From a virus: a stretch of 64,000 nucleotides of DNA. The DNA is taken from the IMG/VR virus record IMGVR_UViG_3300035696_000016, positions 32,001-96,000 of that record; one strand, 5' to 3'. Of this stretch, positions 755 to 51,597 are shown one piece after another. Every line of letters begins with the position of its first letter. The stretch's first letter is position 1. The notes beneath the pieces were generated by a model. The model ran no database searches and was not told the origin of the DNA. It worked only from the letters and a program-made list of their open reading frames with translations. The position numbers were made by a program, and so were the translations under genes.

Positions 755-1321
755 ATGAGCACACTTCCGCCTGCACACCTCGACACACCAGAGAACCGTT
801 TCTTATGGCAACGCAATGTCAGAGATCAATATAAAAACGTATCTACGGAAGATATAAAAAATGATCTAAAAGAAAAAGCGTTGCCAGCAGGCGTATTGGT
901 GCAAAATCTTGAAAAAGATTTTAATATTGGAACTATTATGCGTTCGGCTAATTCTTTTGGTATTTTTGATTTTTATTATTTTGGCGCAAGACATATCGAT
1001 AGAAGAGGCGCTGCTGGATGCTATCATTATATGAATGTAAATAATATAAAAAATATACAAGATGTAAAGAAATTAAAAGAACGATATGTGTTCGTTGGAT
1101 TAGAGAATAATTTAACTCGTGGATCAGTTGATATTCGTAAATATCAATATAAACCGGCAACATTATTTATTATTGGCGAAGAAAATGCCGGTATTACAGA
1201 TGAGTTATTGGATTTATGTGATGACTTAATTGAAATACCTATGTTCGGTAGTATTCGTAGTTTCAATGCTGCAACAGCAGCAAGTATTGCATTTTACGAT
1301 TATGTGAATAAAACACAATGA
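755..1321 (+). CDS. TrmH/SpoU-family RNA 2'-O-methyltransferase (ORF track starts at 710)
   Basis: SPOUT motifs NLEKDFNIGTIMRS, IIGEENAGI, IEIPMFG, SFNAATAASIA. Confidence 0.9.
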   Translation: MSTLPPAHLDTPENRFLWQRNVRDQYKNVSTEDIKNDLKEKALPAGVLVQNLEKDFNIGTIMRSANSFGIFDFYYFGARHIDRRGAAGCYHYMNVNNIKNIQDVKKLKERYVFVGLENNLTRGSVDIRKYQYKPATLFIIGEENAGITDELLDLCDDLIEIPMFGSIRSFNAATAASIAFYDYVNKTQ

Positions 1322-1674
1322 TAATTGATTTTGCATTGACATCTAATTTAGATAATTTTGCCCATTGTTGCATCTGCGGAAAAGAAAACGATGTATTCGC
1401 ATCATTACAATATAGATGTTATGATTGTAAAGTATATATTGAAGTAAGAGAAGACAATAAGGTATCTCAAATATGGATTGGTTGGGATATAGATGTGGAT
1501 AGAGCTGCCGTTTATTATAGCAAGTTGGTTATTCAGCCATTTTTCCTTACTATAACAAAAGATTACATTGTGGTGTTTTCTTTTGGTGATGAAGTAAAAC
1601 GCTTACCAACACCAGAAACGATAGATATCAAAAAACTATACAACAATGTCGATACGTATAAATTACTAATATAA
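1318..1674 (+). CDS. Zn-ribbon hypothetical protein with shared C-terminal tag (DTYKLLI)
   Basis: CxxC...CxxC; C-terminal tag. Confidence 0.65.
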   Translation: MIIDFALTSNLDNFAHCCICGKENDVFASLQYRCYDCKVYIEVREDNKVSQIWIGWDIDVDRAAVYYSKLVIQPFFLTITKDYIVVFSFGDEVKRLPTPETIDIKKLYNNVDTYKLLI

Positions 1675-1682
1675 AGGAAACT

Positions 1683-1865
1683 ATGTTATATCTTATATAT
1701 AAAACGTACTATTCATTGGATGGTAATATAGAAAAAGTAGAACTTGTTGAGGCAGATCAAAATGAAACATCTGTCATTAGTTTTACAAAACTATATGGCT
1801 TACAGACACCAAAAGATATAAAAGATCGCATTGCCTATAATTATATAGGAATGAAAATAGTATGA
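1683..1865 (+). CDS. hypothetical protein
   Basis: SD AAGGA upstream; ATGA overlap with next gene. Confidence 0.55.
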   Translation: MLYLIYKTYYSLDGNIEKVELVEADQNETSVISFTKLYGLQTPKDIKDRIAYNYIGMKIV

Positions 1866-4934: not shown

Positions 4935-6037
4935 TGAATGATATAATTGAAAAGATTGTAAAACAATCACCGCATCTATCTTGGATGAGAAGCGGTGTTA
5001 TATATTTAACGCTATATGGAAGCAAGGCGTATGGCACGGACACGCTTACAAGTGATTCCGATTACAAGGGTGTTGCAATCCCAACAGCGCCATATTTTTA
5101 TGGTTTCCAAAACAAGTTCGAACAAGCAGAACTAAAAGAACCAGACACGGTTATATATGATATTCGTAAGTTTTTCAATCTCGCAAGCGCTGCCAATCCA
5201 TCGATCATAGAAACATTATTTACGGACGATAAAGATCATTTATTGGTTTCAGATATTGGCAATGTTTTATTGCAAAACAGAGACAGGTTTCTATCGAAAA
5301 GAGTTCGTTTTACATTTTCGGGTTATGCAGTTTCGCAATTAAATAGGATAAAACTTCATCGTCGATATCTACTAAATCCGCCAACGCATTTTCCAACGCG
5401 TAAAGAGTTTGGTTTGCCAGAAGAAACATTGATTCCGGCAGATCAATTAATGGCAGCGGAAGCAGAAATAAAAAAAGAATTGGAAAAATATCAGTTCGAT
5501 TTTCTTGGTGAATTGTCGGAACCAATGAAAATTATGATCCGAAACTCAATGTCGGATATATTGACGGATTTAAAAATCTCAAAAGATGATCAATGGCTTG
5601 CTGCATCACGAAAAGTAGGCTTCAATGATAACTTCATTGAGTTTATGAAAAAAGAGCGATCGTATAAAAATCTTAAAACGGAATGGGATAACTATCAGAC
5701 TTGGAAGAAGAACAGAAACGCAAAGCGTGCAGCAGACGAAGCAAAGTTTGGAATTGATTTAAAACACGCATATCATTTAGTAAGATTGATGCGAATGTGT
5801 AGAGAAATACTTACAACAGGCAAAGTAATCGTAAAACGACCGGATAGAAAAGAACTGCTTGCCATTAGAAATGGTGCATGGACTTACGATCAAATCGTAG
5901 AGTTTGCAGAACGAGAAGATAAAGATTTACAAGTTATTTATGAGACAAGTAATCTTTTGCCGAAAATGCCAGATATAAAGTTTTTGGACAATTTATGCGT
6001 TGAGTTAGTAGAGAGACGATTATGCGATGTATATTGA
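4934..6037 (+). CDS. DNA polymerase beta-superfamily nucleotidyltransferase (RlaP/PF10127-like); ORF track starts at 4916
   Basis: YGSKAYGTDTLTSDSDYKG, ANPSIIE, FSGYA, DLKHAYHLVRL. Confidence 0.85.
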   Translation: MNDIIEKIVKQSPHLSWMRSGVIYLTLYGSKAYGTDTLTSDSDYKGVAIPTAPYFYGFQNKFEQAELKEPDTVIYDIRKFFNLASAANPSIIETLFTDDKDHLLVSDIGNVLLQNRDRFLSKRVRFTFSGYAVSQLNRIKLHRRYLLNPPTHFPTRKEFGLPEETLIPADQLMAAEAEIKKELEKYQFDFLGELSEPMKIMIRNSMSDILTDLKISKDDQWLAASRKVGFNDNFIEFMKKERSYKNLKTEWDNYQTWKKNRNAKRAADEAKFGIDLKHAYHLVRLMRMCREILTTGKVIVKRPDRKELLAIRNGAWTYDQIVEFAEREDKDLQVIYETSNLLPKMPDIKFLDNLCVELVERRLCDVY

Positions 6038-6222
6038 AAGATACTGAATACAATCTATGTGTATCTTGGTGTGGTAAAAAAGGAATAAGTTGGAGTGATT
6101 CATATAAAAATATAAAAGAGTGTATTGATATGAAAGATGGCAATGCCTGCAAAGAATGTTTGCATAAATTAATTTTATTACTTCGCGTTTTAGAAAATGA
6201 AAGTTTTACCCTATTGACATAG
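6022..6222 (+). CDS. Cys-rich hypothetical protein with C-terminal tag variant (ESFTLLT)
   Basis: ORF track; CxxxC/CxxC. Confidence 0.5.
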   Translation: MRCILKDTEYNLCVSWCGKKGISWSDSYKNIKECIDMKDGNACKECLHKLILLLRVLENESFTLLT

Positions 6223-7083: not shown

Positions 7084-7398
7084 ATGATAACACATTTTTT
7101 TGAAAAAAGCGCGCATAGTATTCTCATCGTTGATGATACCTATGGAGAGGTTGAATTAGGTATAAGAATGGGATATACATTTGTATGTTGCATTAGATCG
7201 GTAATGGAGTTTTATACTAGTAAAAATGAAGATGTGGCAAAGAATGTTATAAAATTTATGTTAATATACAGTAAGTATGCCGCGATACCTCACGCCTCAA
7301 ATACATCTATACTCGAACTTGCACAGTTTGTTAAAAAATATGATGATAAGTATCCACAATATGGCGAACAATTAGAAAAATATACGCTATTACTATGA
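7084..7398 (+). CDS. accessory protein, paralog family B, C-terminal tag (EKYTLLL)
   Basis: Shares xDVAKN..Y..Y..LEKY pattern with 8440, 12588, 12888. Confidence 0.65.
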   Translation: MITHFFEKSAHSILIVDDTYGEVELGIRMGYTFVCCIRSVMEFYTSKNEDVAKNVIKFMLIYSKYAAIPHASNTSILELAQFVKKYDDKYPQYGEQLEKYTLLL

Positions 7399-8207
7399 AT
7401 CGACCATTTATTTTCCTATCAGGTGAGTTCCGTATAACATTACCGCTTGTGTTTCAACACGAACGGTGGCAACATTGCATGAATGCTCGGATATTAGAAT
7501 TGAATGACAATAAATCATTCCATCGTAAAAATAACGATGAAAAATTACTTGGTTGCATATATCACGCAGACGTTTCCGACGACACAATCAGACGACAAAA
7601 CTTCCATTTTCTAATTGACAACAATATTCCTTGCTATCCCGATCCAAGAAAATTGCTTGCGATAGACAATAGGCATGTGTGCATGGAGAAGGTTATTCGT
7701 GCCAATTTACATACCAATGTAGTTGTTCAATCCAAATACACGAAAGATATTCCAATACAATATCCATTCGTCGTAAAGACCGGAAATGAGCATCAAGGGC
7801 AAGGAAAGTTTTTAGTTAGGAACGAATTAGAGTTGCCAAGATGGGATGGTATTGCAACGATAGAACCGTTTTTTGATGGCGTATCTTGCAGGGTGTTGTG
7901 GATTGGTGATGATTGGTTTAATCTTCGTTTTGACAATGAAACTTCGTGGATAAAAAACAGCAGCGGAGCAGAGGCTTCATTATATCCAGAGATGCCACAA
8001 GGAGTTATAGATCATTCACGCAAAGTAAAAGAATTGTTTGGATTGGATGTTTGTGGAATTGATTATATTGTCGGAAAAGATGGTTGGTGGTTCTTGGAGT
8101 TCAATTATGCGCCGGGATTGGATGTAAGCAATCAAGCTACGGAAGTGGTTAATAAGTTTTTTGGAAGCAAGATGAAATGGGTTGAGGAACAGGTTTATGG
8201 AATATAA
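7395..8207 (+). CDS. ATP-grasp ligase (RimK-like)
   Basis: YPFVVKTGNEHQGQGK, EPFFDG, GLDVCGIDY, FLEFNYAPG. Confidence 0.8.
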   Translation: MNRPFIFLSGEFRITLPLVFQHERWQHCMNARILELNDNKSFHRKNNDEKLLGCIYHADVSDDTIRRQNFHFLIDNNIPCYPDPRKLLAIDNRHVCMEKVIRANLHTNVVVQSKYTKDIPIQYPFVVKTGNEHQGQGKFLVRNELELPRWDGIATIEPFFDGVSCRVLWIGDDWFNLRFDNETSWIKNSSGAEASLYPEMPQGVIDHSRKVKELFGLDVCGIDYIVGKDGWWFLEFNYAPGLDVSNQATEVVNKFFGSKMKWVEEQVYGI

Positions 8208-8439
8208 GGAAGTAAGAATTGCTCATACGAGCGCAAGCCCCAATGAGGAGTTCATATGTATCGATTTATATGTGGATAATATAGATTCAGAATATGACAT
8301 AGATAAAATGGAAAACAAAACTCGGTTTAGAATTGGAAACAAGGGCGAGTATTTTTGTTTGAATACGGTTCTTTTAATGAATATAAATGAACCAAAAGAA
8401 ACATTGTGTAGATTTTTCAAATTATTGATGTTGCAATAA
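8197..8439 (+). CDS. accessory protein with C-terminal tag variant (FKLLMLQ); ORF track starts at 8182
   Basis: ORF; tag. Confidence 0.55.
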   Translation: MEYKEVRIAHTSASPNEEFICIDLYVDNIDSEYDIDKMENKTRFRIGNKGEYFCLNTVLLMNINEPKETLCRFFKLLMLQ

Positions 8440-8754
8440 ATGATTACAGGTATTAGTTTTGAATATTGTGGGGCAAAACAGCAAGCACATTATATTGTGT
8501 ATGATACGGATTTTGAATTAAATATTGAAACTACGATGCTTTCATTTACATCCAATCCTTATATATTCGAATGTCTAAAAGTAATTATAGATGTATATAA
8601 GGAAAAACAATTAAATGTTGCCGCTAATATTGCACATTGGCTGATTATTTTCTATCCTTCCACTGCTCACTCATATTTAGAGCAATTTAAAATGAACATA
8701 CCGGCATACAATAAGTATGCGAATGATGTAGAAAAGTATCTATTACTAATGTAA
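8440..8754 (+). CDS. accessory protein, paralog family B, C-terminal tag (EKYLLLM)
   Basis: YDTDF...VYKEKQLNVAAN...KYANDVEKY. Confidence 0.65.
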   Translation: MITGISFEYCGAKQQAHYIVYDTDFELNIETTMLSFTSNPYIFECLKVIIDVYKEKQLNVAANIAHWLIIFYPSTAHSYLEQFKMNIPAYNKYANDVEKYLLLM

Positions 8755-12021: not shown

Positions 12022-12588
12022 ATGACAACAAAATCATTACTATTAAATCTCCTAAAACAGTATTCCTATCGACAAGGTTCATTCACCCTTGCGTCGGGAC
12101 AACAGAGCAGTTTCTTCCTCGACTGCAAGCCCACATTATTGCAATCGCAAGGACATATACTATCCGCAGAACTCATCTTCGATGAAATCATAAAACTTCG
12201 ACAATACCAAAACATAGGAACGGTTGCAGGAGTTCCACTTGGTGGTTGCAGTCTTGCATCAGCGGTATCTACATATAGCGCAATGCAACGAACAGATATA
12301 ATACATTCACCAGTCAATGCATTGTATATTCGTAAGCAAGCAAAAGACCACGGGACACAACAATTAATTGAAGGCTACGCCGACAACAAGTCAGGTATAG
12401 TTTTACTCGAAGACGTAATCACAAGCGGAGGCTCATCAATTATTGCCCTTGACACATTATATCAAAATGGCTATAATCCAGTAGCAGTTATATGTGTGGT
12501 GGATCGCCTTGCTGGTGGTAAAGAAAATATAGAAAAGAAGTTTCGCATTCCAGTGGTATCGTTGTTTTCGATTGAGGATTTTCAATAA
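12022..12588 (+). CDS. pyrE: orotate phosphoribosyltransferase
   Basis: FTLASGQQSSFFLDCK, IRKQAKDHG, VLLEDVITSGGS, VVDR. Confidence 0.92.
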   Translation: MTTKSLLLNLLKQYSYRQGSFTLASGQQSSFFLDCKPTLLQSQGHILSAELIFDEIIKLRQYQNIGTVAGVPLGGCSLASAVSTYSAMQRTDIIHSPVNALYIRKQAKDHGTQQLIEGYADNKSGIVLLEDVITSGGSSIIALDTLYQNGYNPVAVICVVDRLAGGKENIEKKFRIPVVSLFSIEDFQ

Positions 12589-12878
12589 TGTTCGTTAAGT
12601 CATATAAATCTGATGATGATTGGATTATAGAAGATACGGATTTTATAGAAAAAATAGTGAATCCTCCACCAGTGTCTGGATGGGAACTGATTGTTTGGGT
12701 GTATGAGAAGAAAAATCTTGATGTCGTCAAAAACTTATTACTTGCAATGGATCAATATGATATATTGACTTGTTTTACCCATATGGATATTTTTAATTAT
12801 AGTGATGAACATAAAGAATATTATTCTAAATACCTTAAATATAAAGACGAAGTTGCAAAATACTTGATGTTAGTTTGA
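12588..12878 (+). CDS. accessory protein, paralog family B, C-terminal tag (AKYLMLV)
   Basis: IEDTDF...SGWE.IVWVYEKKNLDVVKNL. Confidence 0.65.
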   Translation: MFVKSYKSDDDWIIEDTDFIEKIVNPPPVSGWELIVWVYEKKNLDVVKNLLLAMDQYDILTCFTHMDIFNYSDEHKEYYSKYLKYKDEVAKYLMLV

Positions 12879-12887: not shown

Positions 12888-13220
12888 ATGTTTATTCGTA
12901 GTAGCAGCGCCTATAAAGGTAATACATTATTCTTCACAATAGAAGATTCAGATTTTACTGAAACAATAGAAATGGAAAACTTAAAGCATTCTGGATGGGA
13001 AGCAATTATCAGAGTATATGAGCAAAGAAACCTAAATGTTGCCAAAAATCTAATGCGCGCCATGGTGGCTCCATTTTATGGAAATAATAACAGTTCTTAT
13101 ACAGATATTTATTTAATTATAAATGCTATAAATGCTATAAATCATAAAGATATGATAGAATATAATCCGAGTTTTCATAAGTATGCTGATGAAATTAAAA
13201 AATATCTATTGCTAATATGA
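12888..13220 (+). CDS. accessory protein, paralog family B, C-terminal tag (KKYLLLI)
   Basis: IEDSDF...SGWEAIIRVYEQRNLNVAKNL; tandem paralog of 12588. Confidence 0.65.
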   Translation: MFIRSSSAYKGNTLFFTIEDSDFTETIEMENLKHSGWEAIIRVYEQRNLNVAKNLMRAMVAPFYGNNNSSYTDIYLIINAINAINHKDMIEYNPSFHKYADEIKKYLLLI

Positions 13221-13630
13221 ATAAATTAGAACAATATAAAAATATAATTAAATATGATACATGCCCCGTATGTGGTAATAAAGATATGATGTATGAGAAG
13301 ATGGGCGATAATCCCAATGTCGCGCGTCCAAAAGAATATCCATTCGAACTTAGTATAGCATGCTATATTGATAAAGATATTACTAATTACAGCCATTATT
13401 TTCAAAATATAGATAATGAAAATCATACCTATTGGAACTTACGATATAAACATAATGGATACGTTTATGAGATAACCAATTCCTACAAGAACGGATTAAT
13501 ACGTTCATATTTTTATTTTTCTGAAACGGGGCATAAAGTTGATTGGGTTTATAGTCCGGGTAAAGATTTTAGCAATCTATCAAAAGAAGAAGTAATCAAA
13601 TTAATTGATAAGGCGGTATTATTGAAATGA
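13217..13630 (+). CDS. Zn-ribbon accessory protein, C-terminal tag (DKAVLLK)
   Basis: CPVCG; tag. Confidence 0.6.
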   Translation: MNKLEQYKNIIKYDTCPVCGNKDMMYEKMGDNPNVARPKEYPFELSIACYIDKDITNYSHYFQNIDNENHTYWNLRYKHNGYVYEITNSYKNGLIRSYFYFSETGHKVDWVYSPGKDFSNLSKEEVIKLIDKAVLLK

Positions 13631-14460: not shown

Positions 14461-14844
14461 ATGAATCTAATCTATCCTAAATGCATTATATGCGACGATA
14501 AATGGGACGATGATCCCCGTGATATATTATGGGAAAATGAAAGTTTAGATCTATTTTGTTCAAATAACCACGACACAATATGGTATTCCCAAAGTAAAGA
14601 TGGTGAATGCAGTTTTGATAGGAACATCCACAATCTATGCGGACATGAGTTCTTGCTTCGATATAATTGTAATTGCGTAATAGATGCTTGTCGTAATAAA
14701 AATGTAATCTATAATTACTCACACACGCGAAACCATGGATGGCATCCAGATAAAATAATAAAAATATTCGATCCTCCATTGCCATTAAATGTATCTCACG
14801 AAGATTTATGGAATAAAATTGAGCACCTATTGGTATTACTATAA
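14461..14844 (+). CDS. Cys-rich accessory protein, C-terminal tag (EHLLVLL)
   Basis: CIIC; tag. Confidence 0.6.
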   Translation: MNLIYPKCIICDDKWDDDPRDILWENESLDLFCSNNHDTIWYSQSKDGECSFDRNIHNLCGHEFLLRYNCNCVIDACRNKNVIYNYSHTRNHGWHPDKIIKIFDPPLPLNVSHEDLWNKIEHLLVLL

Positions 14845-15089: not shown

Positions 15090-15287
15090 ATGAGTGAGAT
15101 ATTACATTACTTGCGCTTAAACGCAACACAACATAATTTTTCAAATAAAATAAGAATACTTAATTCGGTCAAAGACTTAAAACAGTTATTCATACAAAAT
15201 TGTAATGACCCTATATTTATTGATGTTTTAAAAAATAATTTTCCGATATATTACGAAATCCTCGAACCGCTAATCTTATTAAAATAG
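15090..15287 (+). CDS. accessory protein, C-terminal tag (EPLILLK)
   Basis: FPxY pre-tag motif shared with 15401 and 20295. Confidence 0.55.
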   Translation: MSEILHYLRLNATQHNFSNKIRILNSVKDLKQLFIQNCNDPIFIDVLKNNFPIYYEILEPLILLK

Positions 15288-15400: not shown

Positions 15401-15658
15401 ATGAGTTTTGTAAATTGTTCAATGTTTGATATTGAAAAATGTTGGATGTGTTGTCGCGAAGATTCCAGTATTACTGGAAGTTGTTCGATTAATTATTTTT
15501 ACCGTCGTATTAAGTATATAGAAAATGTAAAAGATTTTATAGTTCGTGTATTTAATGCTAAATCGTCCAAGGACAAATCTATATATTTACAAAAATCAAT
15601 AGAATATCATTTTCCACAATATATAAAGTTATATAACACGATATCGCTATTATACTAA
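15401..15658 (+). CDS. Cys-rich accessory protein, C-terminal tag (NTISLLY)
   Basis: HFPQYIKLY before the tag. Confidence 0.55.
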   Translation: MSFVNCSMFDIEKCWMCCREDSSITGSCSINYFYRRIKYIENVKDFIVRVFNAKSSKDKSIYLQKSIEYHFPQYIKLYNTISLLY

Positions 15659-15676: not shown

Positions 15677-16375
15677 GTGGAAAATATTTACCTTTCTGCT
15701 ATCCATAATGTAGTTAAAATTGAAAATAAAAAAGAGCGTTTAGAACAAGTAAAAGAATTAGAAGATTACATATTCGAGACTAAAAACACATATATGGCGT
15801 TGCGACTTGCATATGAATTAGAGTTCATTGGGGTCAGGACTACGCGAATAGAAAATTATATATGTAAAACTGGTAATGGGCGTTTGATTTACCGTTTTGC
15901 TTCTAATATAGAAAAATCAAATATTCAAAAACTCCAAAATGCGATCATTGAATCGAATGATTTTGAAGAAATGGCGCGTTTTGCTTGTTTTGTTAATGGA
16001 GCAGATAAGAATAAAATAGGCGATATCATTGCTCAATCAAACAACATTAAAGCACAATACTTATACATGTGCTTCGTTAAGACATACCCATATATTAATT
16101 TTAGAGAAAGTGTATTAAAATCAAAACGACCACGGTATATTTTTCAATACGCAAAAGTATCAAAAAATGAAAAAGATTTAGAAATAATTCAGGAATTAAT
16201 TTTGAATAGTAAAAGTCTTATGTATTGTAGATTATTTTGCAAAATGTTTCCAAAAATGGATATAAAACGATTCGAGGACAAAGTCTTACGAAGTAAGAAC
16301 GCAAGAGAAATTAGATTATTCGCCAATGAGATTCCGTCAGCAGAACGAGCCAGAACGATGATGTTGTTATTCTAA
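15677..16375 (+). CDS. alpha-helical repeat protein (~35-aa repeats), C-terminal tag variant (RTMMLLF)
   Basis: Repeating IYRFA..IEKSNIQKLQNAII.S / MARFA..V.GAD..KI..II..S units. Confidence 0.65.
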   Translation: MENIYLSAIHNVVKIENKKERLEQVKELEDYIFETKNTYMALRLAYELEFIGVRTTRIENYICKTGNGRLIYRFASNIEKSNIQKLQNAIIESNDFEEMARFACFVNGADKNKIGDIIAQSNNIKAQYLYMCFVKTYPYINFRESVLKSKRPRYIFQYAKVSKNEKDLEIIQELILNSKSLMYCRLFCKMFPKMDIKRFEDKVLRSKNAREIRLFANEIPSAERARTMMLLF

Positions 16376-20294: not shown

Positions 20295-20531
20295 ATGTCA
20301 GAACGAAAACTTACATGGTCAGATGAAGAAATAATCGTCATCAATCCTATGATTTATGTTGTTGATGCGATAAAAAGAAATGACAAAACAGTTAACTTAT
20401 CAAATATTAATAAATTAATAAAATTGTGTTTCTCACTTTCCCTAAATAGAAAAGAATATATTCTCGATAGAATTGAGAAGGCGTTCCCTCATTTAAAAGA
20501 CGAAATAGATAAATATAGGATTTTAGTATGA
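20295..20531 (+). CDS. accessory protein, C-terminal tag (DKYRILV)
   Basis: AFPHLKDEIDKYRILV. Confidence 0.6.
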   Translation: MSERKLTWSDEEIIVINPMIYVVDAIKRNDKTVNLSNINKLIKLCFSLSLNRKEYILDRIEKAFPHLKDEIDKYRILV

Positions 20532-31485: not shown

Positions 31486-31753
31486 ATTATATTACTTAAC
31501 TCCGTGGCAGAAAAAACAAGATGATTTTTATTTTGCACGATATTCCATTGGTGATAATTTTAGACGAGCAATAGTATATCTAATCGAACCATACAAGAAA
31601 ACTAATGATAGTGAATGGGCTGGTTCGGAAACTGGTAATAAATTGTGCAAAACCAAAAAAGAAATTATGAAACGCACAGATAAAGAGTTGGTGGATCGCG
31701 GGTATATCTTACTAACGCAAGAACAATATGATAAACTCATAATTTTAGTATGA
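31478..31753 (+). CDS. paralog family A (YxxPW...GYxLLTQEQ), tag DKLIILV
   Basis: Shared N- and C-terminal motifs. Confidence 0.7.
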   Translation: MDKLYYLTPWQKKQDDFYFARYSIGDNFRRAIVYLIEPYKKTNDSEWAGSETGNKLCKTKKEIMKRTDKELVDRGYILLTQEQYDKLIILV

Positions 31754-32019
31754 ATAAAGTATATTTTTCACCTTGGATTGATGTTGGAACATACCATTGG
31801 GAAAGAAAATCTTTTAGTAAAATATATTTTGTCTATTTATATGATATTCATAGATTGGATAATTATTCATGTTCAGCCTGCATCGATGGTATGTCTATAT
31901 ATCATATAGATGTAAAAGGGAAAATAAATGCTTTCAATCATATGAATAAATGGCTTGCAGATAATAAATGTGTTTTGTTGTCCCAAGAACAATGGGATAA
32001 GTATCAATTACTAAAATGA
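31750..32019 (+). CDS. paralog family A, tag DKYQLLK
   Basis: YFSPW...VLLSQEQW. Confidence 0.7.
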   Translation: MNKVYFSPWIDVGTYHWERKSFSKIYFVYLYDIHRLDNYSCSACIDGMSIYHIDVKGKINAFNHMNKWLADNKCVLLSQEQWDKYQLLK

Positions 32020-32294
32020 ATAAAGATAAAATCCTAAAACCATACGAACAAACCGGCGATGGTAATTATGTCCGTTATTCATTAACGCATATATATTATG
32101 GCGTTGTGTATAAACATAGCAGCATTAATGTATGGTATAGTTCAGAAAATTGGAGTGGTGATGATCAACTCGGTATATCAATACCGTATGGCTCAAAAGA
32201 AGAAGCAATGGCTGCAACGGATGAGGCATTAATAAAAGAAGGATTTACAATATTAACACAGGAACAATACGAAAAATTGTTGTTATTACTATGA
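32016..32294 (+). CDS. paralog family A, tag EKLLLLL
   Basis: ILKPY...SKEEAM..D..LI..GFTILTQEQ. Confidence 0.7.
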   Translation: MNKDKILKPYEQTGDGNYVRYSLTHIYYGVVYKHSSINVWYSSENWSGDDQLGISIPYGSKEEAMAATDEALIKEGFTILTQEQYEKLLLLL

Positions 32295-32536
32295 AAAGAA
32301 AATATGTATCACCTTATATTGATAATAAAAGATATATAATCAATGATCCACAAGGACAATTTTTCTCGGTTCAACCGTGCATCGGCAACGAAGCATTGGA
32401 TGGAATGTGGTATTATTCTATGGGTTATTTTCCATCAAAAGAATTGACGATGGAAGCCCTTGATAAACAACTAATTAAGCAAGGATATACATTATTAACA
32501 CAGGAACAACTTGACAAACTCACCATATTATTCTAA
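32291..32536 (+). CDS. paralog family A, tag DKLTILF
   Basis: YVSPY...DKQLIKQGYTLLTQEQ. Confidence 0.7.
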   Translation: MKRKYVSPYIDNKRYIINDPQGQFFSVQPCIGNEALDGMWYYSMGYFPSKELTMEALDKQLIKQGYTLLTQEQLDKLTILF

Positions 32537-33991: not shown

Positions 33992-34795
33992 ATGTCGAAT
34001 ACAGATACTACAACTAATCTTAATGGTCAATGTTCAATATGTGAAGGATGGAATTGCAACACTGGATATTATGTTAGTAATGGCGGAAATATAAAATGTA
34101 ATTACTTAAGAGAATTAAGTAATGAAAATATTTTTCTAAGATCGGAGATTGTTGTGCTAAAACAATCTATTGCTGATTTAGAAATTAAAACCTTGACTAA
34201 AAAAGATATAATGAAAATATTCGGCGATATAGATCATAATCTAAATGTGTCGCCTCATCACGAAAAAAATATGGCATATTTACGAAATCTATTACAACAT
34301 AAAAATCTTTCCATTGAAAGCAGATATGTTATTTTTCAACAAGCAATAACTGGAAAATATTCTTTTTTAATCGAAGGGTATTTTACCTACATAGTCAATG
34401 AAAATGTATTAGATTTTGTAGATTTTCTGAAATATAATATGGATGACGAAGAAGAAAATATATTAATTGAATTTATTAAAACAAAATCTCATTATATATT
34501 TTACGCGCTTACATTATTTTTTCGATTAGAACGACCAAAACTATCCGAGTTTCTCGAAGACATTATGTATGAAACTATTATTGAAAGACATGTGAATCCT
34601 ATATATTCACAAAATCCTCGTTTTACAAGTGGAAATTGGTCAGTGTATAGAGTATTAGATGCGTATGGGAGCCCAAATCTCGGTAAGGCGCTATCGGTGA
34701 TAAAGAAAATATCAGCACCATATGTATTGAATAATGAAATTAAAGCCTTCGTGCAAAAATATCCCGAAGCAGAAAAATATGCGATGTTAATATGA
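33992..34795 (+). CDS. hypothetical protein, C-terminal tag (EKYAMLI)
   Basis: N-terminal Cys cluster and coiled coil; tag. Confidence 0.65.
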   Translation: MSNTDTTTNLNGQCSICEGWNCNTGYYVSNGGNIKCNYLRELSNENIFLRSEIVVLKQSIADLEIKTLTKKDIMKIFGDIDHNLNVSPHHEKNMAYLRNLLQHKNLSIESRYVIFQQAITGKYSFLIEGYFTYIVNENVLDFVDFLKYNMDDEEENILIEFIKTKSHYIFYALTLFFRLERPKLSEFLEDIMYETIIERHVNPIYSQNPRFTSGNWSVYRVLDAYGSPNLGKALSVIKKISAPYVLNNEIKAFVQKYPEAEKYAMLI

Positions 34796-35036
34796 TGATT
34801 AATTGGTTAAATCGATTATTAGGAAAACCTTTTTATATTAAAGATATAAATAATTGGTATAAACCTATTAAAATATGGTATAATAAATATGGTGAATTAC
34901 ATAATCCGGACGGACCGGCCGTCGAATATAAAAATGGCACCGCTACTGAATACTGGATCAATGGAAAACGTATCTTTCAACTTGACGGCAAACGCATTTA
35001 TGGCAAAAACAAAATAGAAAAATATGCGATGTTAAT
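34771..35036 (+). repeat. 21-bp direct repeat AGAAAAATATGCGATGTTAAT at 34771-34791 and 35016-35036, bracketing gene 34792
   Basis: Exact match read from the sequence; both copies encode the EKYAMLI tag. Confidence 0.9.
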
Positions 35037-35040
35037 CTAA
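34792..35040 (+). CDS. protein with one LHxxDGPA-type repeat, C-terminal tag (EKYAMLI)
   Basis: GELHNPDGPAVEYKNG..EYWING. Confidence 0.65.
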   Translation: MMINWLNRLLGKPFYIKDINNWYKPIKIWYNKYGELHNPDGPAVEYKNGTATEYWINGKRIFQLDGKRIYGKNKIEKYAMLI

Positions 35041-35345: not shown

Positions 35346-35885
35346 ATGCACTTAAACCATATCATCAACGAACTTGACAAACAAATCACGGCATCAAAAA
35401 CGGAATTAGTCTTACTTGAAGAAAGAAAAATCGCGCTAATAAAGTTAGCAGCGAGATACCCAGATGCTCATTTAGAGAAAAACAATACAGTATGCATCGA
35501 TAATCTATGGGACAAGATGTCGTGTATGCGTGTTGCTTGGGGATACGGCTATGGAACATACGGGTCGATGACGAAAGTCAATGTTCGTTTTTCCGTAGGG
35601 AAAAAAGATATGGAAGATGATATCAGGATACATTCATATCCGTATAATAATACAATCGCAAATATTGCATATCTTCCAAATCAAAATGGGTTGTATCCAC
35701 GAAGAACAAAAGAAATTACAATACTTGATTACTCAAATATCATTCCAAACGTTTGTCCAAAACGAAAAATCTTCCTAAAACGAATTAGAAATTATTTATT
35801 AAATATAATAATAAAAGAACAAATGAAAATAAATACCAAATCATATAATACAGATGAGTTCGAGAGGTTAATTTTATTGAAATGA
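35346..35885 (+). CDS. hypothetical protein, C-terminal tag (ERLILLK)
   Basis: N-terminal coiled coil; TGATATA motif 9 nt upstream. Confidence 0.65.
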   Translation: MHLNHIINELDKQITASKTELVLLEERKIALIKLAARYPDAHLEKNNTVCIDNLWDKMSCMRVAWGYGYGTYGSMTKVNVRFSVGKKDMEDDIRIHSYPYNNTIANIAYLPNQNGLYPRRTKEITILDYSNIIPNVCPKRKIFLKRIRNYLLNIIIKEQMKINTKSYNTDEFERLILLK

Positions 35886-36154
35886 AATATCTTTCACCTT
35901 GGAAAAAGATCAGTGAAACGGAAGAGGTTATATTCTCACTTGGTTCAAAAGAGCCATTTATTTATATAATCCATGATCCAGATCCAAACGATGTCAGAGG
36001 CTATGCGACGGCTGGAATGATTAGATTTTCTAATGGTCGATTTAGTTATGATACGCGTGCGGAGGCAAGACAGTTCGTGGAAACTACATTAATTGATAAT
36101 GGATATTGTTTTTTAGATGATGAAAGATATGAAAAATTGGAATTACTGATATGA
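35882..36154 (+). CDS. paralog family A, tag EKLELLI
   Basis: YLSPW...TRAEA..FV...LIDNGY. Confidence 0.7.
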   Translation: MKYLSPWKKISETEEVIFSLGSKEPFIYIIHDPDPNDVRGYATAGMIRFSNGRFSYDTRAEARQFVETTLIDNGYCFLDDERYEKLELLI

Positions 36155-36393
36155 TCTATCTAACGCCTTGGAATAAAGATAATAGACGGCATTATGTAAA
36201 AACTGGACATGTGTGTGTTATGATCGCCTCATACGAACATCACTATGTTATATGGTTAAATAATCTTTCGTCTGAAATAGAAAGATTTAATTGTATTAAG
36301 CGAGCAAAACAATATGCTGATAATTATTTAATTGATAATAGATATGTGTTACTGACACAAGGACAAGTAGATAAAATGAGTATTTTGATATGA
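36151..36393 (+). CDS. paralog family A, tag DKMSILI
   Basis: YLTPW...LIDNRYVLLTQGQ. Confidence 0.7.
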   Translation: MIYLTPWNKDNRRHYVKTGHVCVMIASYEHHYVIWLNNLSSEIERFNCIKRAKQYADNYLIDNRYVLLTQGQVDKMSILI

Positions 36394-40467: not shown

Positions 40468-40970
40468 ATCAAAGATTAAAAAAAGAAATCATTCTAAACA
40501 TATTTAATGTGATGGGAGTATTCAGGGACAAAACCAATTTTTCGGCATCGACGCTGATCGAACCGTTGATCGAAGAAAAGTTTCTTTTGGATAAAAAACT
40601 TTCTTTTGAGATCGAAGATGGGACGAAACGCGAAAATCAGGTTTTTGCTGCGACGACAAAAATTGACGGGAATATGATTAAAGTGATGATCGCAGATATT
40701 ATTGATGAAATCCCCGAGTATGCAATAATAATGCAGATGGATAACTTTCCATCGATCGCAATGCGTCTTTCGTTGGAAGACGACGATTATGGAACTATGA
40801 CGTTTCATATCGAAAATAAATGGATAGAAATTGGCACGAGCGCGCAGGCACGCGTGTTAATGGGAATTGAAAACTTAAGCGAGATTTTTGCTGCTTGGGA
40901 AAGAATGATCGACTATAAAGATATGTATAGTGTTTTAATTAGTTTTCTTAATTATGTCGAAGGTATATAG
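40464..40970 (+). CDS. hypothetical protein
   Basis: ORF track, ATGA overlap. Confidence 0.7.
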   Translation: MNQRLKKEIILNIFNVMGVFRDKTNFSASTLIEPLIEEKFLLDKKLSFEIEDGTKRENQVFAATTKIDGNMIKVMIADIIDEIPEYAIIMQMDNFPSIAMRLSLEDDDYGTMTFHIENKWIEIGTSAQARVLMGIENLSEIFAAWERMIDYKDMYSVLISFLNYVEGI

Positions 40971-41221
40971 TGTGTCATCGTTGTAATGGTTTTACAGGCA
41001 GGAAAGATATACTTGAATACTATCGTTCATTTATTACTGATGGTTATATAACTATAAAAGATTTTATTAAATTGAAAAATTACACGGATGAATATCCATT
41101 CATAATACAAAATGTCATAGAGATGGATTTTTATACGGTATTTAGCACTGATATTCAGCCAGAAGAGTTGTTTCCAGATTTAACAAAAGAACGATTAGAA
41201 AAATTATTGGTGTTGCTATGA
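40970..41221 (+). CDS. accessory protein, C-terminal tag (EKLLVLL)
   Basis: Tag. Confidence 0.55.
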   Translation: MCHRCNGFTGRKDILEYYRSFITDGYITIKDFIKLKNYTDEYPFIIQNVIEMDFYTVFSTDIQPEELFPDLTKERLEKLLVLL

Positions 41222-41463
41222 GAGCATACTTGTATCCTTGGGAAAAATTAGTAATAAATGATCGACATTCATATAAACGACGCGTTCATAACGGTGGTGT
41301 ATATTTTGTGGTGCATTCCGCAAATCAATGGTGGGCTTGGAACGCTGATACTTGTGAAAGTATTCCGTATGAAACTGCCGAAGAAGCAATGAATGCGTAT
41401 GATGATTGTCTTCGTAAATTAGGATACATATTGTTAACGGAAGAAACGATGTTATTGTTATGA
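41218..41463 (+). CDS. paralog family A, tag EETMLLL
   Basis: YLYPW...TAEEAM..D..L...GYILLT. Confidence 0.7.
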   Translation: MRAYLYPWEKLVINDRHSYKRRVHNGGVYFVVHSANQWWAWNADTCESIPYETAEEAMNAYDDCLRKLGYILLTEETMLLL

Positions 41464-41681
41464 ATACCGATGAAATTATTGAAGCTATGATAGCAGGCAG
41501 TAGAAGTCGTGCTATTAAATATATTATTAATGACTATCGATGGTATAAAAAAGAAATTAATAATAAGAGAAGTCTAAAATCTTTTTGTAGTGATCTATAT
41601 AATGCGGAGACCAGCAACAAATTAATGAAAAAATATAATCTATCAGTTGAGGACATAGAAAAATATATGTTATTGCTATGA
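41460..41681 (+). CDS. accessory protein, paralog of 41678, tag EKYMLLL
   Basis: SRSRAIKYIINDY...LMKKYNLSVEDI. Confidence 0.65.
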   Translation: MNTDEIIEAMIAGSRSRAIKYIINDYRWYKKEINNKRSLKSFCSDLYNAETSNKLMKKYNLSVEDIEKYMLLL

Positions 41682-41896
41682 TTGAAAACATAGATTCTTT
41701 TGAAATTAAAACGCGTCAGGATGCCATTAAGTGGCTACTATACGATTATAAGTTATTTTTAGATACAAGCACCGGTTCATTCGGAGAATATATTGAAGGT
41801 AATAGTTATGATTTTTATAATCAGTTGGCTGATCAGGTAATGCGAGACTGGGATATTACTATCGAAGAAGTAGAGAAATATTTAATATTAAAATGA
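41678..41896 (+). CDS. accessory protein, paralog of 41460, tag EKYLILK
   Basis: TRQDAIKWLLYDY...VMRDWDITIEEV. Confidence 0.65.
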   Translation: MIENIDSFEIKTRQDAIKWLLYDYKLFLDTSTGSFGEYIEGNSYDFYNQLADQVMRDWDITIEEVEKYLILK

Positions 41897-47335: not shown

Positions 47336-47548
47336 ATGCTGAAAACCGATCATTCTATTCATTGTATGTGCCGTAATAAAAAACTAAATTGCTACATTGC
47401 AAGCAATAGTGATATTTTTGTATGGGCATGTTTTATTAATAATAAAACTGAAATACATCTTAAGAAACAGCAGTATTCAATATCCAAATATATAGAAGCG
47501 AACAGTCTTTCAGAAGAATATATAGAAAAATTATTATTACTGATATGA
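47336..47548 (+). CDS. accessory protein, C-terminal tag (EKLLLLI)
   Basis: Tag. Confidence 0.55.
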   Translation: MLKTDHSIHCMCRNKKLNCYIASNSDIFVWACFINNKTEIHLKKQQYSISKYIEANSLSEEYIEKLLLLI

Positions 47549-47829
47549 AAACCATATTCGTTGCTAATTGTCCAAGATGCTTAAAACCATTGCATAGAGC
47601 GTTTTCTAACGGTGTAGAGATACATTGTAAATGTGGGTATCTATTAAATAGTATAGATTCTAAGATAGAATGTTCCTATTATTACAGAGGATATTTTATT
47701 TTTTCATCGGAACGAATTGGTGAAACTGCGTTTCATCCTGATGATGGTAATGATATTAAATGGATTAAAAAAGTTTTAGACCCACTAATAACGAATGAAA
47801 AATTAGATAAGATTTTGTTGTTGATTTAG
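47545..47829 (+). CDS. Zn-ribbon accessory protein, C-terminal tag (DKILLLI)
   Basis: CPRC...CKCG; tag. Confidence 0.6.
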   Translation: MKTIFVANCPRCLKPLHRAFSNGVEIHCKCGYLLNSIDSKIECSYYYRGYFIFSSERIGETAFHPDDGNDIKWIKKVLDPLITNEKLDKILLLI

Positions 47830-48230: not shown

Positions 48231-48545
48231 ATGAATAGATCGTATTTAGAACCATATAGACAAAGTCATCATAAGTCTAATGAAGAGAATTATTCTATTG
48301 GTCGATATTTATTAAATGATAAAAGTATGTTTCCCATACCGATTGCCCGTATTGCACGATCTCGTTTAACCAAATTATGGGGATGGGAATATCAAGATAT
48401 CGACGGTAAATGCGAACCCATGTGGATTTACGATCTTCCCGATAGGATAGAAGAATTAAAAGAAAAGATGGATCGTAAGTTGATTGAATGTGGATATATT
48501 TTATTGACGCAGGAACAATGCGAGAAATTTAAGTTATTGATATGA
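48231..48545 (+). CDS. paralog family A, tag EKFKLLI
   Basis: YLEPY...MDRKLIECGYILLTQEQ. Confidence 0.7.
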   Translation: MNRSYLEPYRQSHHKSNEENYSIGRYLLNDKSMFPIPIARIARSRLTKLWGWEYQDIDGKCEPMWIYDLPDRIEELKEKMDRKLIECGYILLTQEQCEKFKLLI

Positions 48546-48590: not shown

Positions 48591-49509
48591 ATGGAAGAAA
48601 AAAAGCTGATTAAATGTATAGATTGTCATCAAGAAAAAAATCAAGAAGATTTTGCTCCGTCAAATATAAAAAAAACATTTTTTCGTATGTAGAGCGTGTA
48701 AGTCAATTAGAAATAAAATTTATAATAAAGAAAACGAATATTCCGTAAAAGAATATTATAAGCAATATTATGCTGATCATAAAGATCAAGTAAAAGAATA
48801 TCATCATAATTATTATGAATCTAATAGAAATATTGTTTTAGAGAAAACCAAAAAATACAATGAAGATCATGCGGAAGAGGTTAGGGTTAGAAAACGAAAA
48901 TGGCGCGTGGCTAATGCTGAAAAATTGAAAATTTATGGTCATATCTATTATATAGAGAACAAAGAAAAATTAGATAAGCAAAATAAAGAACGCGCAGATC
49001 GTAATAAAGAAGAAAAACGATTATATGATATAGAATATAGAAAAAATAATGAAGATAAAATAAGAAAAGATAAAAATGAATACGCTAAAAATAGAAGAAA
49101 TACGGATCCTATTTTTAAATGTAAGTCATATGTATCAAGACAGATTAGTAGTATGTTAAATAAACTCGGTTCATCTAAGGACGGTTATTCTTGTTGGGGA
49201 AGACTTCCATATGAACCAAAAGATTTAATGGATCATTTAGAAAAACAGTTTTCAGATCCAGAAAATTTAACACCAGATGGCAAAGTATGGATGACACGAC
49301 TTAATCGTGGCAGATATAATAAAAAAACTTGGGATGAGCAGGATCCTACTACTTGGAGATGGCACATAGATCACATAGAGCCACATTCGAGTTTCCCGTA
49401 CGATAGTATGGATCATCCTAATTTTCAAAAGGCGTGGGCATTAAGTAATTTACGCCCACTTCGTGCAGATAAAAATATAGAAAAGGGTGCTAAAAGCATT
49501 AAGATATAA
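48591..49509 (+). pseudogene. HNH homing endonuclease split by a +1 frameshift at 48668-48683 (A8-CA-T6)
   Basis: ATG 48591 (SD GAGG) frame gives CIDC...FAPSNIKKT then TAG 48690; +1 frame continues CRAC... into ORF 48907 with WHIDHIEP, NLRPL...N. Confidence 0.75.
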
Positions 49510-49510
49510 A

Positions 49511-51283
49511 ATGAAATCATTGGTAATTGTGGAAAGTCCATCAAAAATTAAAAAAATAAAAGAGATATTAGGTGATGAGTATGAAATACTTGCCAGTTTT
49601 GGACATGTAAAAGATCTCGCTTCCGGAAATAAGCACGGCATAGGGATCGATATCGAAAATAATTTTCGACCTCATTACGTTTTGCTCAAAGATAAAATTG
49701 AGGTAATTGATAATATAATCAATGCTTCGTGTGAGTGTAATGAAATACTATTATGCACGGACGCAGATAGAGAGGGTGAAAAAATTAGTGCCGATGTCGC
49801 CGATATTTTAAAATCCACAGGCAAGCCAATTTTTAGGGCAGTATTTAATGAAATAACTAAGTCCGGTATAGAAAAAGGAATAAAAGAAAAGCACGCAATA
49901 GATGCTAATATGGTAAGGGCTCAGGAAGCAAGACGCGTCCTCGATCGTATCGTTGGATTTACCGTTTCACCATATCTAATGACTGCGTATGCTAATAATC
50001 TTTCGGCGGGAAGAGTTCAATCAGTGGCAACACGCTTAATATCAGACAGAGAAGCCGAGATCGACGCATTTAAACCAGAAGAATATTGGACTTGTGGTAT
50101 AAAATTGCAAACTCAATCACGAGAGATATTTTCAGCCAAGTATGATGGCAAGATTAAAAATAAAGATCAGTCAGATAAATTAGTTTCTTTTATACAAGAA
50201 AATAAGCACTTCGTTGTATCAAAGGTTGTTTCCAAACAGGTTAAAGAGAAACCGCCAGCACCACTTATAACTTCCTCGTTGCAACAAGTAATGGCAAAAC
50301 GTGGTTGGGAACCAGAGAAATGTATGAGCGTTGCCCAAGGGTTATATGAGAACGGAGTAATTACATACATCCGTACAGATGCAACATCGATGGCAGAAGA
50401 AGCGATTGCCGACATTAGAAAATGGATCAAAGACAATAATTACGATCTACCCAAAACCAAAAATATTCATGCAACGAAAGAAACAGCGCAGGCGGCACAC
50501 GAAGCGATTCGCCCTACAAACATAAACGCATTACCCGATAGTGGCTATATGAGTGGTGATGAAAAAGAATTATATTCAGTTATATGGCAATATGCTATTG
50601 CAAGTCAGATGACGCCAGCAATATGGAACACCTTAAACGTAAAAATCGTAAATAAAAACGATAATAAAATTGTTTTCAAGGCATCAGGAAAAGCGTTAGC
50701 AGATCATGGATATCTAAAAATATTCGGTGATGTTGATGCTGGCAAAATCGAAATACCCAATCTAATAGAAAAACAAGAATTGTTATTGGATGATAAATCT
50801 ATAAGAGCTGATCAAAAATATACACAGCCTCCGCCAAGATTTAATGATGCTTCGTTGCTAAAAGAATTAGAGCAAAAACAAATCGGAAGACCATCGACCT
50901 TTTCAGAAATTATTAAGAAAATATCAAATAGACATTATGTTGAGAAAACTAATAATACATATAAACCGACAGAATTGGGAAAACAAATAACTAATTGTCT
51001 ATCAGAATTATTTACATTTATGGATTATAGTTTTACTTCGAAGATCGAAGAAGAGTTAGATAAGATAGCAGAAGGTAAAATAACTCATACAGAAGTATTA
51101 AAACAGTTTTACGATATTTTTTCCAAAGAATTAGCAACAGCATATAGGAACAGGTTGGGCGATAAAGTTTTATGTAAAAAATGCAATCAAAATATGATTG
51201 AACGAGAAGGTAAGTTCGGAAAATTTAATGTATGTATAAATCCGGCGTGTAGAAGTATTGAAAATATAAAAATGGTGGCATAA
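49511..51283 (+). CDS. topA: type IA DNA topoisomerase I (ORF track starts at 49487)
   Basis: LVIVESPSK, GHVKDL, DADREGE, SAGRVQS, ITYIRTD, AHEAIRPT, GRPST, Zn ribbon. Confidence 0.97.
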   Translation: MKSLVIVESPSKIKKIKEILGDEYEILASFGHVKDLASGNKHGIGIDIENNFRPHYVLLKDKIEVIDNIINASCECNEILLCTDADREGEKISADVADILKSTGKPIFRAVFNEITKSGIEKGIKEKHAIDANMVRAQEARRVLDRIVGFTVSPYLMTAYANNLSAGRVQSVATRLISDREAEIDAFKPEEYWTCGIKLQTQSREIFSAKYDGKIKNKDQSDKLVSFIQENKHFVVSKVVSKQVKEKPPAPLITSSLQQVMAKRGWEPEKCMSVAQGLYENGVITYIRTDATSMAEEAIADIRKWIKDNNYDLPKTKNIHATKETAQAAHEAIRPTNINALPDSGYMSGDEKELYSVIWQYAIASQMTPAIWNTLNVKIVNKNDNKIVFKASGKALADHGYLKIFGDVDAGKIEIPNLIEKQELLLDDKSIRADQKYTQPPPRFNDASLLKELEQKQIGRPSTFSEIIKKISNRHYVEKTNNTYKPTELGKQITNCLSELFTFMDYSFTSKIEEELDKIAEGKITHTEVLKQFYDIFSKELATAYRNRLGDKVLCKKCNQNMIEREGKFGKFNVCINPACRSIENIKMVA

Positions 51284-51597
51284 TGAGTGATAAAATAATT
51301 TTAACGCCTTGGATGCGTCAGGAAGATTATTGTTATGAAAGGTTAGATTTTTTCCAAAAATATTATACTTGGAGAGGAAGAGTTAAACAAGGATATCATA
51401 TAAATTACCCTAAAAAATGGAGTTGGCGTTATTGGCATGTAGCAGAAAAACATGCCGACTATTATACTACCGATGATAATCAATTATTCGATACTCGTGA
51501 AGAGGCACAAGCATTCGTTGATCAAAAGCTAATTGAACAGGGACGGTATAAACTCTTAACAGAAGAAGAATACGAAAAACTTGCAATTTTAATTTAA
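51283..51597 (+). CDS. paralog family A, tag EKLAILI
   Basis: ILTPW...TREEAQAFVDQKLIEQGRYKLLTEEE. Confidence 0.7.
   Translation: MSDKIILTPWMRQEDYCYERLDFFQKYYTWRGRVKQGYHINYPKKWSWRYWHVAEKHADYYTTDDNQLFDTREEAQAFVDQKLIEQGRYKLLTEEEYEKLAILI

Follow-up and report, generated by a model that had tools for sequence, protein, structure and literature searches.

The 64,000-nt stretch of viral DNA analysed here (the window) corresponds to bases 32001–96000 of a 120,590-nt viral contig (IMGVR_UViG_3300035696_000016; hereafter G000) and encodes numerous small proteins which differ in their bodies but share a single C-terminal tag, a motif of 12–13 residues with an invariant leucine in the penultimate position. 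The tag is strongly enriched at protein C-termini and exactly registered to them, is under purifying selection, is borne by unrelated bodies and is conserved throughout a clade of huge phages. About half of our confidence goes to the interpretation that it is a portable C-terminal address helix, read in trans at the end of the chain by one partner; both the reading in trans and the identity of the reader are matters that we infer from the properties described below. Huge phages carry hundreds of small function-unknown genes, of which a sixth to a fifth here share one sharply defined ending, and this ending is under stronger selection than the proteins that bear it.

The contig has a GC content of ~0.32 and an estimated completeness of 28% (CheckV), and its closest relatives are all uncultured: G001 (68.7 kb), the polymerase of which is 87% identical to that of the contig, G005 (157 kb) and G004 (406,470 nt, 95% complete). 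Because G000 is syntenic with G004, with which it has 163 reciprocal best hits at a median identity of 84%, it is a piece of a huge phage with a genome of ~400 kb. Nearly all genes are carried by one strand, and neighbours are often joined by ATGA overlaps. Whole-contig counts refer to a greedy set of 217 non-overlapping open reading frames (ORFs) of at least 50 aa, 244 overlapping ORFs having been discarded; one tagged ORF, at window position 20295, was missed by this procedure and is thus absent from the counts and from the body groups described below.

A sequence-only reading of the window had listed 30 ORFs with a common seven-residue ending, all of which were recovered at the same starts and with the same last seven residues. 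The ending as such is therefore confirmed, but the conserved stretch is longer, covering ~13 residues with the consensus h-[ST/P]-x-E-x-h-[ED]-K-[LY]-x-[LVIM]-L-x (h, hydrophobic; x, any residue). A strict pattern, [KR][YLMFIAV].[LIMV]L.$, matches 44 of the 217 contig ORFs against 0.22 expected from the internal rate of the same proteins, a ~200-fold enrichment; when preceded by [ED], it still matches 32 (0.03 expected), and the loose pattern [LIMV]L.$ matches 58 (4.4 expected from the same internal rate). Among the 244 discarded ORFs, the corresponding counts are 1 (strict), 1 (strict with [ED]) and 13 (loose). Three loose matches, starting at contig positions 15268, 93662 and 114202, were judged to be due to chance and subsequently excluded. 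In the 55 tagged contig proteins, the penultimate Leu (−2) is invariant (55/55), as had been claimed, and position −3 is always L, V, I or M (55/55). Position −5 is L or Y in 43 proteins, −6 is K in 42, R in 4, T in 3, E in 2 and another residue in 4 (Q in none), −7 is E or D in 40, −8 is hydrophobic, −10 is E in 27 and −12 is T, S or Y. The last residue varies (I in 15, K in 13, L in 7, V in 6 and M in 5, besides Q, T, C and A), and hydrophobic residues fill nearly all of the last five positions. Between the core and the stop there is exactly one residue in 44 cases in G000 and in 69 cases in G004, compared to 0–2 cases at each of the offsets of 0, 2, 3 or 6 residues in the two genomes, a registration that is hard to account for unless the chain end itself matters.

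Base composition does not account for the motif, because strict tags are absent from all 109 ORFs of the late-gene region of G004 (pieces L023–L028) and from all 64 ORFs of G003, an unrelated AT-rich phage contig (GC ~0.29–0.31 by piece). The genes recognised in the window include a type IA topoisomerase, an Mre11/Rad50-like pair, PNKP, RlaP and a sugar-modification cluster, and a DnaE-type polymerase and a helicase are encoded just beyond its edge. The proposition that recognisable enzymes lack the tag holds for the nine window proteins with a Pfam match, eight of them enzymes, none of which is tagged.

The tag characterises one clade of huge phages. G004 carries 69 strict and 101 loose tags among 633 ORFs, confined to 40–60 kb and 220–380 kb besides a few at 80–101 kb and at the ends, and G005 carries 54 strict and 90 loose tags among 331 ORFs, with an identical consensus; across the three genomes, 11%–20% of ORFs are tagged by the strict and 16%–27% by the loose pattern. 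The ending is kept in 41 of 42 orthologues of tagged genes with a reciprocal best hit between G000 and G004, including pairs at only 32%–50% identity, and family-A homologues (see below) on other metagenome contigs all retain the tag. Even a homologue with 28% identity to the 267-aa protein encoded at window position 33992 still ends in K-K-F-Q-I-L-A. As a side observation, G004 has only two tRNA genes, for Lys(UUU) (L018:1488-1562) and Ile(UAU) (L036:12830-12903), which read AAA and ATA, codons frequent in the tag; the Ile gene adjoins a tagged array.

Selection acts on the protein, as the sequence-only reading had argued. In 39 orthologue pairs between G000 and G004, the ratio of the proportions of nonsynonymous and synonymous differences (pN/pS) is 0.126 over the last seven codons compared to 0.384 over the bodies of the same tagged proteins (0.13 vs 0.38 in round figures), with pS at 0.476 and 0.380, respectively, and synonymous sites saturated; in 99 untagged pairs, tails and bodies are alike (pN/pS 0.26 and 0.23). 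Because tail residues are conserved while their synonymous sites are as diverged as those of the bodies, it is the amino acids that are under selection. Two further observations of the sequence-only reading hold: tag codons vary, L(−2) being encoded by TTA, TTG, CTA and CTG, and the tag persists where no coupled gene follows, namely in ORFs 15677 and 47545, each followed by a gene on the opposite strand, 48231, followed by a 361-nt gap, and 51283, followed by a 46-nt gap. More generally, the same motif occurs in 30 ATGA-coupled tagged genes and 25 uncoupled ones, both motif and codon bias are unchanged in 66 tags without an overlapping downstream gene (followed by a gap or by nothing on the strand), and the 21 untagged ATGA-coupled contig genes have unrelated tails lacking the motif.

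Codon sharing is about as frequent between adjacent tails as between distant ones (0.51 vs 0.48), which indicates that there is no general gene conversion or homogenisation among them. Two recent copy events were nevertheless detected. The 3′ ends of the unrelated neighbours 33992 and 34792, which encode proteins of 267 and 82 aa both ending in EKYAMLI, have in common an exact stretch of 21 nt (longest common substring within the last 45 nt, stop codon included; window 34771-34795 and 35016-35040), which looks like a recent transfer or duplication of a tail; the second event involves 29 nt common to two paralogues. Sigma-70-like promoters are not enriched in window positions 30001-50000 (104 vs 110 in shuffled sequences).

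The tagged proteins are short (52–137 aa, plus three of 179–267 aa). Their bodies were grouped by trimming the last 14 residues, clustering with phmmer and comparing all 231 window cluster pairs with hhalign (probability ≥75). The 29 window proteins fall into 19 body groups, reported as family A (8 members), family B (4) and 17 singletons, and the 144 tagged proteins of G000 and G004 fall into 68 body clusters. The bodies are thus truly diverse, but the description ‘about 30 unrelated’ proteins was overstated, since 9 of the 30 belong to one paralogous family (A) and 4 to another (B); of the former, ORF 31750 is a singleton by profile and a member of family A by eye only. Family A is marked by an N-terminal YLxPW and a C-terminal GYxLLTxEQ motif. 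Three of its members lack one helical turn (xDKh) and yet end in h-L-L-x, so that the spacing of the tip from the chain end is preserved, and its spacing from the body is not.

AlphaFold2 (AF2) models were obtained for both families. The family-A protein 32016 is predicted to consist of a beta-sheet, a helix at residues 61–74 and a tail helix at residues 82–91 (pLDDT 88.5), and the family-B protein of three strands and five helices, the last of which is the tail (pLDDT 89.3); the two predicted folds differ and both end in the same helix. The sequence-only reading had pictured a constant docking tail; in both families, this tail is not a flexible appendage but a confidently predicted helix continuous with the fold. 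Comparison of 10 tagged proteins with Pfam and of 10 with PHROGs yielded no meaningful match, no PDB structure was matched by Foldseek at E ≤0.001 for the model of either family, the best Z scores in a wide VIA-align search with the two models (6.0 and 4.9) were within noise, and ESM Atlas was uninformative for two singletons.

Reading in trans at the chain end is suggested by the fixed position of the Leu combined with a free last residue, by the presence of the same tail on unrelated bodies and folds, and by the one-turn losses in family A. The tail has the traits of an autonomous helix, that is, an N-cap, an acidic first turn and an E(−10)/K(−6) i,i+4 pair. As an address helix it would have the N-cap (T, S or P), carry its acidic residues at −10 and −7 and its Lys at −6, and finish in a hydrophobic tip of the form h-x-h-L-x-COOH. 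This tip and the chain end would fit jointly into a closed pocket in one common partner, with the variable bodies serving either as cargo or as specificity modules. Our first choice of receptor, which takes somewhat less than half of the weight that we give to the address-tag interpretation, would be an unfolding or degradation machine of the host, in which case the tail could time the early proteins as a class or provide the constant handle for a library of adaptors; the second choice would be the interior of the capsid, where the tail would load proteins to be injected with the DNA.

Shared terminal peptides read by one partner are of a known kind, exemplified by degrons, clamp-binding tails and targeting sequences; this particular motif, its helical form, the penultimate-Leu rule and the scale of ~100 genes per genome have no counterpart among the Pfam and PHROGs matches of the 10 tagged proteins searched against each. 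Full-text searches of the literature on shared C-terminal motifs of phage proteins and on phage R2K enzymes yielded no description of such a tag, supplementary files being outside the search.

The tag can be compared with several known systems. The bacterial beta-clamp motif (QL[SD]LF or QLxLxL) has Gln at its first position. Clamp-binding tails of this type and those by which T4 gp43, gp33 and gp55 bind gp45 resemble the tag in being short, often C-terminal hydrophobic peptides that attach unrelated proteins to one ring, but the aligned position −6 is K in 42/55 tags and Q in 0/55, and ~100 clamp clients would be unprecedented. In the ssrA-like degrons of ClpX, an unstructured tail ends in three non-polar residues and a free carboxylate; the tip of the tag is non-polar in most proteins, is Lys-ended in 13/55 and is predicted to be helical. 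Ligands of PDZ domains and tail-specific proteases have a hydrophobic last residue, a specific residue at position −2 from it and a free penultimate residue, a pattern which is reversed here, with a varying last residue and a penultimate Leu in 55/55. The capsid targeting sequence of T4 is N-terminal and is cleaved by the prohead protease, whereas the tag is C-terminal.

An address tag with a closed pocket is favoured because its architecture is the reverse of that of a PDZ ligand and the same as that of the HbYX motif of proteasome activators, which is likewise described as hydrophobic, with an invariant penultimate residue and any last residue, at the chain end (PMC12352868, PMC10349882). 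Unlike HbYX, with its penultimate Tyr, the tag has Leu in 55/55 proteins and never Tyr, and searches of the phage for proteasome and HslV genes were negative. Both ssrA and the XB peptide of SspB exemplify short C-terminal peptides which bring many proteins to one AAA+ protease; XB is reported to bind the zinc-binding domain of ClpX and to work irrespective of its position in the chain (PMC12373786), in contrast to the strictly terminal tag, and neither ClpX nor ClpP was detected among the phage genes. Diverse internal proteins of T-even phages are described as sharing only one targeting sequence (PMC3012670), so that there, as would be the case here, diverse polymorphic small phage proteins carry one short terminal sequence for one destination; they differ in being few per phage, against ~100 genes, and in having no sequence likeness to the tag. 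Encapsulin cargo proteins are described as carrying a C-terminal peptide of ~10 aa which binds pockets of an HK97-like shell, thus attaching unrelated cargo to one receptor, as we propose for the tag, but through a flexible Ala/Pro/Gly-rich linker (PMC8229669), whereas here the helix is continuous with the fold and residues −13 to −20 are not Ala/Pro/Gly-rich. Finally, the poxvirus ankyrin/F-box (PRANC) proteins are presented as a library of substrate adapters with variable bodies and a constant C-terminal handle docking on a host degradation machine (PMC9414399), an analogy of design only, given that the system is eukaryotic and the handle a folded domain rather than a 13-residue helix.

If the tag is an address label, a functional class of ~100 proteins would be defined at once, and the 13-residue peptide would be usable as bait, with a single-residue variant as the negative control, which could reveal the machine used by these proteins, be it a protease, the capsid or a modifying enzyme. 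A possible application would be a portable tag for sorting or degradation.

Several observations weigh against an address helix read in trans. No receptor was found: the ClpX zinc domain, ClpP and the C-domain of the beta-clamp (DnaN) were undetectable in G000, G001 and G004, the polymerase of the phage being of the DnaE type, and proteasome/HslV and Lon (Lon_C) were undetectable in G000 or G004. Because the phage genomes lack a detectable one, any hub of the protease or clamp type would need to come from the host; a search for the host with the aminotransferase gene among genome contigs found no relative. Furthermore, ~100 tagged proteins per genome would compete for a single site. The tail helix has a pLDDT of ~86–96 in the last ten-residue blocks of both AF2 models, and may, judging from these models, pack on its own body instead of lying free. 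There is also a nucleotide-level overlay which the sequence-only reading had missed, exemplified by window positions 31732-31753: Leu, Val and Ile codons at −4 to −2 almost all end in a purine, in coupled and uncoupled genes alike, and L(−2) is YTR in 128 of 129 tags of G000 and G004, where ~1/4 CTT or CTC would be expected. This purine bias points to an additional constraint at the level of nucleotides or translation, or to common descent of the tails. Finally, ATGA coupling is commoner in tagged (30/54) than in untagged genes (21/137).

Two ATPase-like genes were also noted. A borderline AAA match lies at contig 23441-24571 (21 bits), where Pfam finds no match, and an FtsK/SpoIIIE-like ATPase (phrog_1358, E 2.6e-57) is encoded at window 45346-46359, with two tagged genes lying 1 kb downstream. 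ATPases related to the FtsK/SpoIIIE family recognise C-terminal signals in type VII secretion.

The main rival to the address tag, because both models place the tail helix with high confidence, is that this helix is structural in cis or self-associating, being simply the slowest-evolving core element of small, fast-evolving array domains with no common receptor. We consider this unlikely, although the helix is indeed continuous with the fold in two families and has its N-cap and E(−10)/K(−6) pair built in, many tagged proteins are paralogues in tandem arrays, and a weak profile link (probability 70; hhalign, 766 of 2278 pairs of all tagged clusters) connects family A to another tagged array. 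A helix belonging to the core would not have to stop exactly one residue past a Leu, as the tail does in the 44 and 69 cases counted above; nor would it be expected to recur as one tail on 19 body groups with two folds, to remain at the chain end after one-turn deletions, or to end in five nearly all hydrophobic residues, which exceeds the needs of one packing face.

That the tail is a cargo-loading signal, binding the inner face of the capsid or a scaffold so that varied small proteins are packaged and injected, appears improbable. The T-even internal proteins with their shared targeting sequence (PMC3012670) and the encapsulin cargo peptides (PMC8229669) are described precedents, G004 encodes an HK97-class major head protein (phrog_2522, E 2.5e-77), and the tagged proteins are, as would suit injected proteins, small, fast-evolving and polymorphic between relatives. 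However, ~100 cargo species per genome would far exceed the known cases, tags sit among replication and accessory genes, those pieces of G004 that contain the head and other large-ORF genes are the ones with 0/109 strict tags, and no flexible linker precedes the tail.

A further alternative, distinctly improbable in our view, is that the tail marks the substrates of a C-terminus-modifying pair encoded by the phage itself, namely an R2K.2 ATP-grasp ligase which would add residues and an S51 peptidase which would remove them. An S51 peptidase (PF03575, 1.7e-40) and an R2K_2 ATP-grasp protein (PF18299, 5e-26) are encoded at contig 10354-12486, each preceded by a tagged gene, which makes the pair a candidate reader of the tag. 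The module as a whole, which is conserved and lies upstream of the window (L006:10647-15246 in contig coordinates), comprises S51, R2K.2, three ORFs without a Pfam or PHROG match and a TANGO2-like protein. The order of tagged gene, S51-sized ORF and R2K match recurs in the ORF lists of G004 and G005, where S51 is recognised by size only; two more distant contigs, L047 and L048, have S51 and R2K side by side according to Pfam, which also identifies TANGO2 in L049. Tag-like endings adjoin R2K homologues in L048, L049 and L050. The last of these, a 1.5-kb metagenome contig, has its R2K homologue (L050:158-1315) flanked by overlapping small ORFs ending in K-N-L-A-F-L and R-N-L-V-F-L, possibly a variant of the tag specific to that lineage. 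The action of a ligase or carboxypeptidase would also explain exact registration with a free last residue. Such adjacency is, however, expected by chance, because tagged genes make up at least a quarter of the region. Moreover, R2K homologues are widespread (716 clusters, with only two cultured phages having a weak homologue), the R2K contigs L046, L047 and L051 have no tags, and no such ending was seen among the 49 annotated CDS around the R2K-like gene of Tunturiibacter phage Tunturi_5. The related enzymes RimK and TTL act on acidic, not hydrophobic, tails. The prediction of a complex between the R2K ligase, ATP and a family-B tagged protein, run without controls, scored 0.00 in both runs and weighs neither way.

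In the literature, R2K.2 enzymes are predicted to be protein-modifying peptide ligases with unknown targets (PMC4431377), and the R2K member Cdc123 is described as depending on the C terminus of its client (PMC8844851). It is highly improbable that there is a full modification cycle in which R2K.2 adds residues to the free carboxylate one position past the Leu and S51, perhaps with the TANGO2-like protein, removes them. If true, it would switch ~100 small phage proteins as one class, providing a bacterial-virus counterpart of the tubulin tyrosination cycle and the first substrates of R2K.2.

Least probable of all is that the tail DNA is a recombination junction or a coupling signal and the peptide a by-product without a role, for, despite the enrichment of ATGA overlaps in tagged genes, the purine-biased third codon positions and the two recent copy events (21 nt in 33992/34792 and 29 nt between paralogues), residues are conserved over synonymous sites as diverged as those of the bodies (pS 0.48 vs 0.38), the 66 tags without an overlapping gene have the same motif and codon bias, untagged ATGA-coupled genes lack the motif and neighbouring tails are no more alike in their codons than remote ones. 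Two formal resemblances were dropped, namely the eukaryotic acidic dileucine signal [DE]xxxL[LI], which the tag matches, because the DNA is that of a phage, and the Leu core bound by DnaK, because a terminal position is not required there.

All tagged genes of the window are on the plus strand and were identified by their last seven residues, supplemented by body grouping, neighbours or models where mentioned. The first two encode a 118-aa CxxC protein forming a singleton group (1318..1674, DTYKLLI) and a 66-aa Cys-rich protein with a weak tail (6022..6222, ESFTLLT). Family B, assigned by tail and body grouping, is represented at 7084..7398 (104 aa, EKYTLLL), 8440..8754 (104 aa, EKYLLLM), 12588..12878 (96 aa, AKYLMLV) and 12888..13220 (110 aa, KKYLLLI); an 85-aa tagged ORF (8182..8439, FKLLMLQ) immediately precedes the second of these, and a gene for a 137-aa CxxC protein (13217..13630, DKAVLLK) overlaps the last. 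Next come a 127-aa Cys-rich protein (14461..14844, EHLLVLL), a 65-aa protein (15090..15287, EPLILLK) and two proteins with weak tails, of 85 aa (15401..15658, NTISLLY) and 232 aa (15677..16375, RTMMLLF), the latter identified by tail and neighbour, the next gene being on the opposite strand. The ORF outside the greedy set encodes 78 aa (20295..20531, DKYRILV).

Four tandem family-A genes at 31478..32536 (31478, 31750, 32016 and 32291; 81–92 aa), assigned by tails, family and the AF2 model of 32016, end in DKLIILV, DKYQLLK, EKLLLLL and DKLTILF, the first three being ATGA-coupled to the next gene. They are followed by the two genes with the 21-nt repeat, of which 33992..34795 (267 aa) is assigned by its tail and the 28%-identity homologue, and 34792..35040 (82 aa) has a repeat-like body, MORN-like by eye only. 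A 179-aa protein (35346..35885, ERLILLK) precedes two family-A genes at 35882..36393 (35882, EKLELLI; 36151, DKMSILI; tails and family). Four ATGA-coupled tagged genes occupy 40970..41896 (40970, 41218, 41460 and 41678), 41218 being a short-tail variant of family A (EETMLLL). Two tagged Cys-rich genes lie at 47336..47829, namely 47336 (EKLLLLI) and 47545 (DKILLLI), the last before the opposite-strand gene, and an orthologue from this pair in G001 retains the tail. The last two, of family A by tail, family and neighbour, both encode 104 aa (48231..48545, EKFKLLI; 51283..51597, EKLAILI) and precede the 361-nt and 46-nt gaps, respectively.

Among the other genes of the phage, those for sugar modification are clustered at window 20528-31485, none of them tagged, and include a methyltransferase-glycosyltransferase fusion (21287-23188) and a DegT-type aminotransferase (28447-29556). 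Mobile elements are present within the phage as an IS605 OrfB/TnpB-like gene (L006:7949-8842), a LAGLIDADG endonuclease (L007:7298-8272) and a large HNH endonuclease (L007:5148-7235). The ends of G004 (L018–L019 and L037–L038), with a GC content of 0.39–0.44 and many short ORFs on both strands, are unlike the remaining genome. Beyond the window, contig 99517-104069 (L008:3517-8069) contains the gene of the DnaE-type polymerase, 1169 aa long, and after it an ORF of 330 aa that has a weak match to an endonuclease-like family (phrog_2340, E 2.2e-4) and ends in almost the same acidic tail (..EGLIDLDDE..) as the polymerase; the polymerases of G001 and G002 are of 1172 aa and themselves bear this tail. 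The arrangement looks like the insertion of a mobile endonuclease gene near the 3′ end of the polymerase gene, with duplication of the last codons of the latter, and the acidic tail may itself be a docking peptide.

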